64,000 bases of DNA from Syntrophales bacterium. GTDB lineage: Bacteria > Desulfobacterota > Syntrophia > Syntrophales > PHBD01. The notes below the pieces were generated by a model. That model was not told the DNA's origin. It saw nothing but the letters and a program-made list of their open reading frames with translations, and did not search any database. Shown in pieces: positions 16,572 to 20,633 of this stretch (the stretch's first letter is position 1; each line of letters opens with the position of its first letter). A program made the translations under genes and the position numbers. The DNA lies in NCBI GenBank assembly GCA_963668175.1, contig OY764159.1:2240001-2304000 (forward strand), read 5' to 3'.

Positions 16572-17714
16572 TTACCGCCGGAATGACGGTACGGCGAGGA
16601 CCAGCACGAGGGAAAACAGCGGGAAGATAACCTGGCCGCCCAGGAGCCATTCGATATTCGTGAGCTCGGCGATCTTTGCGAAGAGGACGACGAGCACCCC
16701 GCCCAGGCCCCAGACGAAGCCGCCCAGGAAGGAGGACACCGTCCCGACATAACCGGGGGCGCGCTCCTGCGCCATGACGATAAGGAGCGAAAAGGGGAGC
16801 ATCAGGAAGAGCCCCAGGAAGGCGAGGACGGTGATCTGGACGAGGCCCGCAGGCGGGGACAGGTTAAAGAGGGTCAGGAACAACGCGGACAAAACGGCGG
16901 AGAGGGCAAGCAGGGGAAGCCGCCCGGTCTTTTTGGCGGCGAGCGATCCGGCCAGCGGCCCCAGGGCGCAGCCCAGCGAAAAGGCGGACAGGAACAGGCC
17001 GGTCGCGCCCACGGACGCCCCCCACTGCCGCAGGTAAATCGGCACGAAGCTGTACAGGTTCATGGCCGTGATGCTCACGGCGAGGGCGAAAAGGAAGAGG
17101 GGGAAGATCGGGACGGCGATCTTCGCGAGGGGATAGCGGAAGCCGTCCGCATCCTTAGGCGCGGCCCTCTCCCCTTTCGGCAGGACGGCGAAGAGTGCGG
17201 CGGCCGCCGCGATGCCCGGAACGGCGATGAGATAGAGTCTCGAAAGGCCGAAGCGGGAAACGAACAGGGAAACGAGGGAAGGTCCGGCCACGAAGCCCAG
17301 CGACGTGGCGAGGAGAAGATACGAGATGACCGTGGGCATGCCGCCGGGGCGGGGGGCCTTCACGGCGGCGAAGGAAGCGGGATGGAAGGCGCAGATGCCG
17401 ACGCCCGCCAGGAGCAGGAGCACGATCAGCGTTGCGTAATCCGGGGCGAACCCCAGGCCGCCCATGCACGCGCCCACGGCCAGCGGCGAGAGGCAGAGGA
17501 AATAGTAATACCCCAGCCGGTCCTCGACCCAGCCGAAGAGGGGCTGCGGGAGGGCGTTGAAAAGGGAAAAGACGGAGACCAGGGCGCCCGCCTCGGTGAT
17601 CGTGAGCTTCATGTCCTGCATGAAGACGGGGAGCAGCGCCGGCAGGATGCTCGTGTAGGACGTGATCAGGAATTTGACGAAATAAAGCGAACCGTTTCTC
17701 ACGCGCGTTGCCAT
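16572..17714 (-). CDS. MFS transporter (Fsr-like)
   Basis: About 12 TM helices; QPLFGWVEDRLG (motif A-like); GICAFHPAS. Confidence 0.85.
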   Translation of the reverse strand: MATRVRNGSLYFVKFLITSYTSILPALLPVFMQDMKLTITEAGALVSVFSLFNALPQPLFGWVEDRLGYYYFLCLSPLAVGACMGGLGFAPDYATLIVLLLLAGVGICAFHPASFAAVKAPRPGGMPTVISYLLLATSLGFVAGPSLVSLFVSRFGLSRLYLIAVPGIAAAAALFAVLPKGERAAPKDADGFRYPLAKIAVPIFPLFLFALAVSITAMNLYSFVPIYLRQWGASVGATGLFLSAFSLGCALGPLAGSLAAKKTGRLPLLALSAVLSALFLTLFNLSPPAGLVQITVLAFLGLFLMLPFSLLIVMAQERAPGYVGTVSSFLGGFVWGLGGVLVVLFAKIAELTNIEWLLGGQVIFPLFSLVLVLAVPSFRR

Positions 17715-17756
17715 TCTTGGATTTCCGGCCGCGATGCCCCGGGTTTCACTTGCGCT

Positions 17757-18320
17757 TCACGCTCCGCCCCAGCGCCGGAAAAGATTGTGCTCGACGCCCA
17801 GGAAATCGAAAACCTTCCCGACGGTCTGATGGACGATGTCGTCGATCGTCCGGGGCTGATGGTAGAAGGACGGGATGGGCGGCAGGATATGGGCGCCGCA
17901 TTCGGCCGCGGCCGCCATCAGCCGGATGTGGCCGAGGTGAAGGGGCGTCTCGCGGACAGCAAGGACGAGCTTGCGTTTCTCTTTCAATGTGACGTCGGCG
18001 GCCCGGATCAGGAGGTTCGCCGTATAGGAATGGGCGATGCCCGAAAGGGTCTTGATGGAGCAGGGGGCGACGACCATGCCGTCCGTAAGGAACGAACCGC
18101 TCGACAGGACCGCGGCCATGTCCTGATTGTCGTAGCTGTAATCGGCGAGCGCCTCGACCTCGGCGGGCTTGTACGCGGTCTCGATCTCCATCGTCTTCTT
18201 CCCCGCCTCGGAGACGATCAGGTGCGTCTCGACGTCCGTGTCCCGGAGGATCTCCAGCATCCTGATCCCGTAAATAACGCCGCTCGCCCCGGTTATGCCG
18301 ATCACGATCCGTTTCGCCAT
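17757..18320 (-). CDS. ubiX: Flavin prenyltransferase UbiX
   Basis: GITGASG, SSGSF, APCSIKTL, RAADVTLKEKR, RETP, FYHQP. Confidence 0.95.
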   Translation of the reverse strand: MAKRIVIGITGASGVIYGIRMLEILRDTDVETHLIVSEAGKKTMEIETAYKPAEVEALADYSYDNQDMAAVLSSGSFLTDGMVVAPCSIKTLSGIAHSYTANLLIRAADVTLKEKRKLVLAVRETPLHLGHIRLMAAAAECGAHILPPIPSFYHQPRTIDDIVHQTVGKVFDFLGVEHNLFRRWGGA

Positions 18321-18368
18321 GCGCTGCCTTTATCCTTTCCGGGCCGCGGGGCCCGCATCTTCCTTCTG

Positions 18369-18597
18369 CAGGCTGTTGCTAATGTTAGGCGCGTTGCAAT
18401 GAGGGACCGCAACGCTTACACCGCCACATCTGTCGTTTATCACCTTCAGGTGACGTTGCGCTGCTGCGCCCCCTGCATAGGGGGCAAGCCTCGTCAATCG
18501 ACATACTCCTATGTATGCCTCATTCCTCGGCTTTCGCGCGCCTTACATCTGGACATTTTTGAACAGCCTGTTCAGAATCGAGTTTTTCAGCAATCTG
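18369..18597. repeat. Dispersed MITE/REP-like repeat, copy 2
   Basis: Inverted CAGGCTGTT (18369) and AACAGCCTG (18570); homologous to 16116-16356; its end overlaps the stop codon of the LpdD-like gene. Confidence 0.75.
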
Positions 18598-18985
18598 CCA
18601 GATATCGCGCCATGAATTTAATGAGGGCATCGACGTTGCCGACGACGTCGCGGATGGCGCCTTCGTCCAGGTTGTCCCAGTGAATGCCGGCGGCGACGGT
18701 CACGCGCGTGTCGAGGGCGGCGGAGAGATACTCGGACGCCTTCTTCACGACCTCGTCCTCCTTGTGGCCCACCACGCAAAGGACGGACGCCGTGGCGCTG
18801 GCCGCGGCGGGGTCCTTCAGGCTCGGCCGCGGCTGGGCCAGGGCGACGGCCCCGATATGCGGGCGCTCCCCGCCCCAGATGGCGACAAGGAGATCCCTGC
18901 CGATCCAGCGCGCGCAGGCGTCAAGGTCGTAACGGCCTTCTTCCGTCCTGAATGTGGCCCCATCCTGGGTTTTCGCTGCCTGCAC
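18587..18985 (-). CDS. lpdD: Prenylated-flavin chaperone, LpdD-like
   Basis: GGERPHIGAVALA, GHKEDE and AAGIHWD motifs; lies between ubiX and ubiD. Confidence 0.7.
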   Translation of the reverse strand: MQAAKTQDGATFRTEEGRYDLDACARWIGRDLLVAIWGGERPHIGAVALAQPRPSLKDPAAASATASVLCVVGHKEDEVVKKASEYLSAALDTRVTVAAGIHWDNLDEGAIRDVVGNVDALIKFMARYLADC

Positions 18986-19184
18986 GTTTTCGCCTCTTTA
19001 ACTTCCGGTGAAATAAGCGGCCCCTGCCGCGCAACTTTTACATTGAAAATCATGGTCAATGCAAGACTTATCTATTTACAAACGGGCGGCCGTATGATTA
19101 TGCTCTGCTCTCCAAGTCGCCCATGATTTGGTCACATCGCATACATTACTGCCAGGAATACATAGAAAAGAAAGGATTCGGATT

Positions 19185-20633
19185 ATGAAAAGGGTCACTT
19201 TGCTGCTGCTTCTCGTTCTCATGACGGCTGTCGCTGCGCCGTCGTACGGAGCCGGAAAGGCTTCCGCGGACCTTCCCGGGACGGCCGACCGCCTCGTCGA
19301 CCTGAAGGCGACCATCGATTTCCTGGACAAGACGGGGAATCTCGTGCGCGTCAAATCGGAAGTCGATCCGGTGCTTGAACTTGCCGGCATCGCCAAGAAA
19401 TACGAAGGCAAGAAATGCATCCTCTTTGAAAAGGTCAAGGGGAGCGCCTACCCGGTTTTCATGGGCCTCCTGTGGAACCGCGACACCGTCGGCGCCCTCT
19501 TCAACGTCCCCAAGGAACAGGTCCCCTTCGTGATTGCGAGCGCCATCGGCGCCTGGCGTAAGGACAAGGAGGCGCTGGCCTCGCCCGTGCTGGCGAAGGG
19601 TCCGGCCAACGAGGTCGTCGTGACGAAGAACATCAACCTCTACGAACTGCCCGCGCCCGTTCACGCCCTGAAGGACGGCGGACCCTATTTCGATTCGTCT
19701 GTGGTGGTCGTGAACGACCCGGAAACGGGGAAGCCCAATATCTCCATTCACAGGATCATGATCGCCGGCAAGGACCGCCTCACGTTCCTCATCGACCCGG
19801 GGCGGCACCTGGGCGCCTATCTCGACATCATGGAAAAGAAGGGGAAGCCCCTCCAGGTGACGATCAACAACGGCGTCGGCCTCGCCCCCTGGCTGGTGTC
19901 CTCCGTGCCCGGAACGGGCCCCGGCAAGGCGACCATCGCGAGCCGGATCATCGGCAGGCCCATCAACTTCATCAAGGCGCAGACGGTCGATGTCCCGGCG
20001 TTCGCCGATGCGCAGTTCGTCATCGAAGCGGAGATCCTCCCGAACGTGCGGGAGCCGGAAGGCCCCTTCGCGGAAGTGACGGGCTACTACGGCGCGCGCG
20101 AGAAGCGCTGGGTCATGCAGGTGAAGGCCATCACCCACCGCAAGAAGCCCGTCTTCCATTCGCTCCTTTCGGGGCAGGAGGTGTGGAACGCCGTCGGCTT
20201 CACCGCCGAGGCGAAGATCTTCGGGACGGTCAAACAGAAGGTCGCGGACCTGAAAGCCGTTTACCTGCCGCCGGGCGGCTGCGGCTTCTACGGCGCGGTC
20301 CTGCAATTATCCAAGACGAAGGAAGGCGTCCAGAACACGGCCATCGAGGAGGCGTTCAAGGCGTTCCCGTCGCTGCAATGGGTCGTCGCCGTGGACGACG
20401 ACGTGAACATCTACGACCCCATCGACGTCGAGTGGGCCGTGACGACCCGCTTCAACGCGAAGAAGGGGTTCATGATGCTCCCGGACCAGCCGGGCCATAT
20501 CCTCAACCCCATGGTGGAGGGCGGCAAGGTCACGAAGGTCGGGGTGGATGCGACGGCGCCGTTCCCGCGCACGTCCGCGTTCGAGCGCACGAAATTCAAG
20601 GACGTCGATTTGAAGAAGTACAGGATCGAATAG
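19185..20633 (+). CDS. UbiD-family prFMN-dependent (de)carboxylase with an N-terminal signal peptide
   Basis: EVDPVLE, DGGPY, NISIHR, EGPFAEVTGYY, VDDDVNI..VEWAV.TR, KVGVDAT; N-terminus MKRVTLLLLLVLMTAVAAPSYG. Confidence 0.9.
   Translation: MKRVTLLLLLVLMTAVAAPSYGAGKASADLPGTADRLVDLKATIDFLDKTGNLVRVKSEVDPVLELAGIAKKYEGKKCILFEKVKGSAYPVFMGLLWNRDTVGALFNVPKEQVPFVIASAIGAWRKDKEALASPVLAKGPANEVVVTKNINLYELPAPVHALKDGGPYFDSSVVVVNDPETGKPNISIHRIMIAGKDRLTFLIDPGRHLGAYLDIMEKKGKPLQVTINNGVGLAPWLVSSVPGTGPGKATIASRIIGRPINFIKAQTVDVPAFADAQFVIEAEILPNVREPEGPFAEVTGYYGAREKRWVMQVKAITHRKKPVFHSLLSGQEVWNAVGFTAEAKIFGTVKQKVADLKAVYLPPGGCGFYGAVLQLSKTKEGVQNTAIEEAFKAFPSLQWVVAVDDDVNIYDPIDVEWAVTTRFNAKKGFMMLPDQPGHILNPMVEGGKVTKVGVDATAPFPRTSAFERTKFKDVDLKKYRIE

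Follow-up and report, generated by a model that had tools for sequence, protein, structure and literature searches.

The window analysed here, 64,000 nucleotides from a Syntrophales bacterium (contig OY764159.1, positions 2,240,001 to 2,304,000), contains at 16572-20633 a four-gene module for a UbiD-family decarboxylase that is predicted to depend on prenylated flavin mononucleotide (prFMN) and that appears to be made for export. The UbiD gene is divergent from three genes on the minus strand, which encode a major facilitator superfamily (MFS) transporter, the flavin prenyltransferase UbiX and an LpdD-like protein (Table 1). All four had been named in a first-pass annotation of this DNA, and Pfam and NCBIfam matches confirmed each of them at its place. 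The UbiD protein was matched by PF20695 (2.1e-16), PF01977 (4.5e-49) and PF20696 (1.9e-23), and it reached 270.1 bits with TIGR00148, for which the cut-off is 244.85. The LpdD-like protein scored 119.8 bits with PF21758 (cut-off 27). A longer N-terminus is impossible in its reading frame, which has no hydrophobic start. The N-terminus of UbiX, whose gene lies 864 bp upstream of the UbiD gene on the opposite strand, is not hydrophobic either, and both proteins are without export signal. A consensus scan of 16400-20900 gave four promoter-like sites against 1.0 expected.

Table 1. Features of the four-gene module in the window
Feature	Position	Strand	Basis
UbiD-family decarboxylase precursor, 482 aa, AnInD/HmfF-like	19185..20633	+	Pfam UbiD_N, UbiD, UbiD_C; TIGR00148
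Predicted Sec signal peptide, residues 1-23	19185..19253	+	Sequence; homologues; AlphaFold2 model
Shine-Dalgarno site GAAAGGA, 8 nt before ATG 19185	19170..19176	+	Sequence
Promoter-like site TTTACA-18-TATGCT between the divergent genes, ahead of the signal-peptide start	19075..19104	+	Consensus scan only
LpdD-like protein of the reduced prFMN (prFMNH2)-binding chaperone family, 132 aa, without signal peptide	18587..18985	-	PF21758 6.3e-35, single copy in genome
UbiX flavin prenyltransferase, 187 aa, without signal peptide	17757..18320	-	NF004685 265.6 bits (cut-off 188)
Compact 12-helix MFS transporter, 380 aa, Fsr-like (fosmidomycin-resistance-like, efflux type)	16572..17714	-	PF07690 3.3e-30

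The MKRV start of UbiD was assigned to the ATG at 19185 (not 19182). Met13 is the sole other in-frame start before the UbiD_N domain. It had been considered that the true start might lie downstream of the hydrophobic stretch; this appears unlikely, as a Shine-Dalgarno site stands before ATG 19185 and none is present at Met13. The N-terminus so defined, MKRVTLLLLLVLMTAVAAPSYGA, displayed the layout that had been described at first reading, with a basic n-region (MKR), a hydrophobic h-region (VTLLLLLVLMTAVAA) and no twin arginine; the c-region is PSYGA. By inspection, AVA-AP, SYG-A and YGA-G are candidate cleavage sites (the hyphen marks the cut). The Sec criteria, namely a basic n-region, an h-region of ~10-15 residues and small residues at -3/-1, were assessed by visual inspection and a crude hydropathy test. 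By these the protein has the layout of a Sec-type signal cleaved by signal peptidase I, and homologues are alike, e.g. PLNGFA-Q and GVSA-Q. The Tat motif (S/T)RRxFLK was not found, the window UbiD having KR. The crude test is passed by ~10% of the long open frames of the genome (294/2954). In the AlphaFold2 model of UbiD (mean predicted local distance difference test, pLDDT, 91.7; predicted TM-score, pTM, 0.88) residues 1-30 lie outside the fold. A lone helix spans residues 2-16, pLDDT falls below 50 at residues 14-28, and the fold begins at about residue 33.

The N-terminal extension is shared by the relatives of the protein. Among the best 120 homologues (67-97% identity), 110 had a signal-like N-terminus in the crude test, applied here as a basic start plus a hydrophobic window of 11 residues ahead of the conserved RLVD anchor. 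This frequency exceeds chance. The ten that failed comprised three with called starts inside the c-region, two with over-long called starts and the signal inside, two fragments and three apparently signal-less proteins. Eleven orthologue loci were also taken from named genomes (Syntrophus buswellii DM-2, Syntrophales, Geobacter and Geobacteraceae metagenome-assembled genomes (MAGs), Desulfomonilaceae and Thermodesulfobacteriota). All 11 had a signal-like N-terminus with an AAAGGAG-type Shine-Dalgarno site directly before it, and in two of them a stop codon lies 1 codon (L002) and 4 codons (L011) upstream of the signal-peptide start. The objection foreseen in the first-pass annotation, that homologues might lack the extension, was thereby removed. 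In the 121-sequence alignment of the clade the majority-residue fraction was 0.38 for residues 1-35 and 0.84 for the remainder, which indicates that the N-terminus is conserved in its properties and not in its sequence.

Signal statistics were determined for the 105 full-length signals of the clade. The n-region, which is 2-4 residues long in 75 of them, carried a net charge of +2.0 on average, against -0.65 for the 15 residues past the uncharged stretch; this distribution fits an N-in, C-out orientation. At least two basic residues were present in 82 n-regions, a single one in 16 and none in 7. The RRx-hydrophobic(-hydrophobic) motif was found in just 3/105 signals, and on this ground the signal peptide is predicted to be of the Sec type and not of the Tat type. 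The signal of S. buswellii, MKWTIRLF, contains no paired basic residues. Across the clade the h-regions are rich in Leu, Ile and Phe and strongly hydrophobic, and such h-regions favour Sec and the signal recognition particle (SRP). In one lineage (P0112) a lipobox, LLAGC, was observed.

In order to delimit the group, 1.84 billion representatives at 50% clustering were searched exhaustively, and 4318 UbiD-family members were returned. The hydrophobicity threshold was reached by two of the 150 best family representatives, namely P0129 (69% identity), which is a fragment from the clade, and P0200, which is an internal fragment. The full-length proteins closest to the clade but outside it have no signal (P0121, 50% identical, with a basic, non-hydrophobic extension; P0123-P0127, 41-43%). 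A quick maximum-likelihood tree was calculated from 79 rows: the query, 26 of the 120 homologues spanning the identity range, and those of the representatives P0121-P0175 with at least 250 aa. The signal-bearing proteins formed one group of 30 rows with an SH-aLRT support of 96, in which three N-terminally incomplete fragments and P0068, P0070 and P0071 are also included. P0068 and P0071 form a nested signal-less pair, and the absence of their signal may be due either to secondary loss or to miscalled starts. The question of whether signal-bearing UbiDs form a clade could thus be answered in the affirmative, the sister lineages being without signal, and by these comparisons the signal-bearing N-terminus is restricted to one UbiD clade.

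Orthologues are rare and patchy. They were found in 3/150 other genomes of the order, in 0/8 of the same family and in 2/400 genomes of a phylum sample, one of these with a stop and a frame break. In this last orthologue of the signal-bearing UbiD, at locus L033 (G476:C327), a single in-frame TAA accompanies the frame break and the ABC ATPase comes next; the locus may be a pseudogene or may result from an error of assembly. G024 and G075, which belong to one genus within the order, contain 15 and 36 UbiD-family matches, respectively, with one signal-bearing copy each. In L011, from a Syntrophales MAG, positions 5385-5951 and 7572-8531 encode a NADPH-dependent FMN reductase directly before UbiD and a MenA-like prenyltransferase that faces it; their counterparts in the window's genome are 77% and 71% identical and lie at other places.

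The genome of the window consists of one contig of 4.57 Mb and is rated 100% complete. A single UbiD was detected by Pfam, by tblastn and by a profile of 153 diverse family members over all open frames. UbiX is also present once, the next TIGR00421 match (22.4 bits) being under the cut-off, and LpdD occurs as a single copy. Going by these searches, the window UbiD is the only prFMN consumer in the genome, and UbiX and LpdD have no other client. In G041, which is also complete, the only UbiD is likewise signal-bearing; this orthologue is 85% identical and lies in the same four-gene cluster. The cultured isolate Syntrophus buswellii DM-2 has the same four-gene module as its sole UbiD system, and the match statistics of its locus (L006) are identical to those of the G041 locus (L016). 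The flanks of the module differ between the window genome and G041/S. buswellii; the four genes thus behave as a module.

Domains, model score, catalytic residues and the presence of UbiX indicate that the window protein is a prFMN-dependent UbiD-family decarboxylase. The closest solved structures are those of the indole-3-carboxylate decarboxylase AnInD (7p9q, 349 bits) and the 2,5-furandicarboxylate decarboxylase HmfF (6h6v, 301 bits), and Foldseek gave the AlphaFold2 model a target-normalised TM-score of 0.92 to each, at 41% and 38% identity, respectively. The catalytic Arg and the EGPFxE motif reported in the first-pass annotation are indeed kept: R190 and the EGPFAE motif (E292, E297) are present, so that the protein has the E(D)-R-E catalytic network of the UbiD family, and R155, E261 and E266 of AnInD align with R190, E292 and E297. 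Among the 121 clade sequences, N185, D204, H208 and E297 are conserved in 121, and R190 and E292 in 118. The available text on AnInD describes R155, the catalytic E266 and D169, which according to mutagenesis matters for indole binding (PMC8988006). By alignment D169 corresponds to D204, a residue common to all members of the clade and to the sister group, with an equivalent in just 13/132 other family representatives. Because D204 is kept, a small (hetero)aromatic acid with an N-H or O-H group, similar to indole-3-carboxylate, is the probable substrate.

Assignment to known orthologue groups was also attempted. The scores with VdcC (248 bits, cut-off 650), mena_SCO4490 (145.1, cut-off 495.9) and PRK10922 (122.4, cut-off 788) were far under the cut-offs, and the VdcC, menaquinone MqnL-type and E. 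coli UbiD groups were rejected. A role in quinone biosynthesis was rejected as well, given the low scores with the MqnL-type and E. coli UbiD models, the presence of MenA and the fact that the futalosine family PF02621 (MqnA/MqnD) was not found in the complete genome.

As for the metal site, N185 and H208 are kept, the latter being a His that we take to be a Mn2+ ligand site in UbiD, and the Mn2+-binding Glu is replaced by Lys 248 (19926-19928) in 121/121 clade members. A 4-residue deletion relative to the sisters adjoins this residue. In the available text of PMC10295083, the Mn2+ ligands at the prFMN phosphate of the E. coli enzyme are N175 and E241; E241 equals AnInD E217 and the position of Lys 248 by sequence alignment, not by a superposed metal site. 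Among the 132 other representatives, 99 have Glu at this site and 23 have Lys, none of the Lys bearers having a signal peptide. Lys at the Mn2+-Glu site is, in this sample, not unique to the forms predicted to be exported.

The MFS protein displayed about 12 hydrophobic segments with very short loops. Its family is small, with 33 clusters at an identity of at least 45%, followed by a drop to 32% or less. The homologues are named FSR family by JGI, and the language-model (Atlas) neighbours are Fsr-like too. No specific NCBIfam match was obtained, the best E-values being near 1e-9 and far under the cut-offs, and the best solved relative, NorA, was a weak match (E 0.0011). The protein looks like an efflux-type carrier resembling the Fsr family (TC 2.A.1.35); this fits the export of something without pointing to a particular cargo. 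Beside UbiD, the MFS orthologue occurs at just three sites, namely in this window, in S. buswellii (69% identical, same cluster) and on one metagenome contig. The latter, the sole locus in the metagenome scan, has the same four-gene cluster with match statistics near-identical to those of S. buswellii. In the phylum sample, 1/400 other genomes had a 32% identical MFS match, and neither UbiX nor UbiD lay closer to it than 1.5 kb.

At L005 and L007-L010 an operon directly after UbiD encodes a DrrA/NodI-like ATP-binding cassette (ABC) ATPase, an ABC-2 permease and an S-adenosylmethionine methyltransferase of ~355 aa with two N-terminal membrane helices; the genomes of this group have 2-4 UbiDs each. 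At L001-L004 and L011 neither the MFS nor an ABC-2 transporter was found nearby. The occurrence of two different exporter types beside the gene in two subgroups is suggestive. Further co-locations, indicated by contigs of equal length, are hints only: UbiD P0001 with MFS P0272, P0014 with P0279 and P0104 with P0273; LpdD P0320 with MFS P0274; and LpdD P0323, P0328, P0334 and P0370 with UbiD P0012, P0011, P0013 and P0017, respectively.

With the four genes, a conserved N-terminus of signal-like character, intact catalytic residues and the sole status of UbiD, UbiX and LpdD established, we consider it probable (roughly 0.6) that the signal-bearing UbiD is an exported prFMN enzyme. The precursor of the AnInD-like protein would bear a cleavable Sec signal peptide and be threaded unfolded through the inner membrane, and the enzyme would be active in the periplasm. 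UbiX, whose gene is transcribed divergently, would supply the cofactor in the cytoplasm, and the LpdD chaperone would probably keep it in the reduced form. The Sec system carries unfolded chains, and a Sec-exported UbiD must therefore get its prFMN outside the cytoplasm; the cofactor would need a separate passage through the membrane and would bind to the apo-enzyme on the outer side. The separate cofactor export already proposed in the first-pass annotation stands in so far as the sole UbiD, served by a cytoplasmic UbiX and LpdD, would need it if exported, the export itself being predicted only. Loading in the periplasm appears feasible, because apo-UbiDs have been reconstituted with free prFMN in vitro (PMC8988006, PMC7976604) and Bfe provides a precedent as a bacterial exporter of FAD to the periplasm (PMC3551548), as stated in the available text of these sources.

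In the Syntrophus lineage the efflux-type MFS in the ubiX-lpdD operon would be the leading candidate for the cofactor crossing, and it may as well move the substrate or product of the enzyme; that it exports prFMN is possible but doubtful. A complete extracytoplasmic prFMN pathway in strict anaerobes can be drawn only tentatively, and as a whole it is somewhat more doubtful still. LpdD would hand the UbiX-made prFMNH2 to a dedicated efflux carrier (the Fsr-like MFS; ABC-2 in a sister group). Once in the periplasm, prFMNH2 would be bound by the Sec-exported apo-UbiD, in which Lys 248 would take the place of the Mn2+ bridge to the phosphate.

Several observations weigh against export or against its proposed details. 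The localisation of the enzyme rests on prediction, and three members of the clade (P0068, P0070 and P0071) appear to be without signal. LpdD is a cytoplasmic protein that, according to the literature, passes prFMNH2 straight to apo-UbiD; this role fits cytoplasmic loading better than periplasmic loading. The presence of TatC in the genome, together with the at least two basic residues in 82/105 n-regions, leaves room for a non-canonical Tat route. In an anoxic periplasm, prFMNH2 would also have to be oxidised to the active form. The link with transporters is also uneven, since the MFS orthologue is adjacent in just 1/11 genome loci, besides the window and one metagenome contig, and ABC-2 exporter genes are adjacent instead in 5/11. 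G024 (92% complete) and G075 (83%) have a signal-bearing UbiD, and their MFS matches are just 28-30% and their ABC-2 matches 25% identical. The co-occurrence of the clade with this MFS, proposed earlier as a check, was thus observed in the Syntrophus lineage only, and the lack of a transporter common to the clade argues against a single dedicated prFMN exporter. What stands of the earlier suggestion, a carrier for prFMN or for substrate or product, is the efflux type and the place in the cluster, a linkage limited to the Syntrophus lineage.

It may also be that UbiD is exported, that the MFS carries substrate or product, and that prFMN reaches the periplasm by another, unlinked route, which we regard as a real possibility, but one well short of even odds. 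MFS genes commonly adjoin UbiD genes, and in G024 a 30% identical MFS is found beside a cytoplasmic-type UbiD. Other loci of the clade lie among carboxylate uptake systems (TctABC and TctC at L001; the tripartite ATP-independent periplasmic transporter DctM at L008), and no transporter is common to all of them. On the other hand, the MFS is of the Fsr-like efflux type and not an aromatic-acid:H+ symporter, a periplasmic enzyme needs no substrate importer, and in both genomes with a sole UbiD the MFS gene stands in one operon with ubiX and lpdD. It is unlikely that the hydrophobic N-terminus is instead a membrane anchor or targeting helix, with a cytoplasmic, LpdD-loaded catalytic domain beside the transporter. 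For such an arrangement the charges (+2.0 before, -0.65 after) are the reverse of what N-out, C-in needs, and a ~15-residue core, behind which come a Pro/Gly turn and then small residues (AVA, GFAQ, GSAQ, VSAQ), is the layout of a cleaved signal and not of a 20-residue anchor. The lipobox in one lineage (P0112) points in the same direction, and no quinone step needs UbiD, the futalosine route not having been found in the genome, where MenA is present. An anchor would suit the cytoplasmic location of LpdD and UbiX, the methyltransferase with two N-terminal membrane helices in the ABC-2-group operon, and the link of E. coli UbiD chemistry with membrane-bound substrates mentioned in the available text of PMC10865409.

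Alternatively, UbiD may fold and take up prFMN in the cytoplasm via LpdD and be exported in folded form by Tat through a non-canonical KR signal, so that no cofactor exporter is needed. This would account for a chaperone in the cytoplasm and for the fact that no exporter is common to the clade; TatC is encoded in the genome, the window signal starts with MKR, and most n-regions have two or more basic residues, as given above. We judge it slightly less probable than an anchor, in view of the scarcity of the RRx-hydrophobic motif (3/105), the 16 n-regions with one and the 7 with no basic residue, the 2-4-residue length of most of them (75/105), the S. buswellii signal without paired basic residues and the strongly hydrophobic h-regions, which favour Sec/SRP. 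Finally, it is very unlikely that the exported protein no longer uses prFMN as usual, having become a binding protein or adopted an altered cofactor chemistry. The exchange of the Mn2+-binding Glu for Lys in 121/121 sequences, beside the 4-residue deletion, would agree with such a change. However, R190, E292, E297, N185 and H208 are kept, the same Lys occurs in 23/132 other representatives, all without signal peptide, and UbiX and LpdD in the genome have no other client.

The lpdD-ubiX gap (18321-18586) measures 266 bp in the window and 43 bp in S. buswellii (L006). No credible Rfam match to a riboswitch or other RNA was found in the cluster, this gap included. A 132-nt direct repeat, 90% identical, at 14782-14913 and 16569-16700, duplicates the 3' end of the MFS gene. 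The pair flanks a 1787-bp segment of lower GC content (0.51) that encodes a 389-aa tetratricopeptide repeat (TPR) protein with a signal-like start, and this segment looks like an insertion beside the module. The surroundings of the module (window 1-13400 and 20836-25000) encode a STAND NTPase/phosphoesterase, a PEP-CTERM protein, a TIG-domain protein, a transglutaminase-like protein, a papain-like peptidase, a secreted 224-aa protein of no family, a periplasmic cyclophilin and a subtilase; the region is mixed and probably variable. Neither the 224-aa secreted protein downstream nor the periplasmic cyclophilin was detected at any of the related loci.

To our knowledge, all characterised UbiD enzymes work in the cytoplasm, beside the UbiX that makes their unstable cofactor, and we know of no described carrier for prenylated flavin across a membrane. 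Full-text literature searches returned neither an exported UbiD nor prFMN outside the cytoplasm, subscription-only papers being outside their scope. In the available text of PMC8269228 the signal peptides belong to hydrolases, and in that of PMC13416013 a signal peptide is mentioned in the methods only. If the enzyme is exported as proposed, reversible (de)carboxylation of aromatic acids would also take place outside the cytoplasm of anaerobes, and prenylated flavin would be trafficked across a membrane. An exported UbiD also bears on the question of which oxidant turns prFMNH2 into the active form when oxygen is absent. The prediction is directly testable, because the cultured S. buswellii DM-2 carries the same module as its only UbiD system.

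Among known systems, AnInD from Arthrobacter nicotianae (PMC8988006) is the best match of the window UbiD in both sequence and fold. The two proteins share an identical EGPFAEVTGYY stretch, and R155, D169 and E266 of AnInD equal R190, D204 and E297. Unlike the clade, AnInD has no signal peptide, and it has Glu (E217) where the clade has Lys 248, near which the loop of the clade is shortened. HmfF from Pelotomaculum thermopropionicum is the second-best match, and JGI gives many clade members this name; in contrast to the clade, it is cytoplasmic and has no Asp equivalent to D169 of AnInD, and its Asp-Glu metal motif is kept.

For the crossing of the cofactor, a parallel is offered by Shewanella, in which a Sec-exported flavocytochrome reportedly takes up the FAD exported by Bfe. 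In that system, too, a flavin made in the cytoplasm is carried over the inner membrane by a multidrug-type efflux carrier, as described in the available text of PMC3551548. Bfe is a multidrug and toxic compound extrusion (MATE) carrier with FAD as cargo, unlike the window MFS, and the two are likened by function and not by sequence comparison.

The gene content of the module resembles that of the LpdBCD gallate decarboxylase of Lactiplantibacillus plantarum, for which the same three families are encoded together: LpdC is the UbiD, LpdB the UbiX and LpdD the prFMNH2 chaperone (available text of PMC10865409). The LpdD-like protein of the window is a distant relative of L. plantarum LpdD (8po5; E 1.6e-7), in which H35, H61 and D63 are named as metal ligands (PMC10865409); H35 and H61 are kept and D63 is replaced by Glu. 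The module differs from LpdBCD in that its UbiD bears a predicted export signal and its operon adds an efflux-type MFS transporter.

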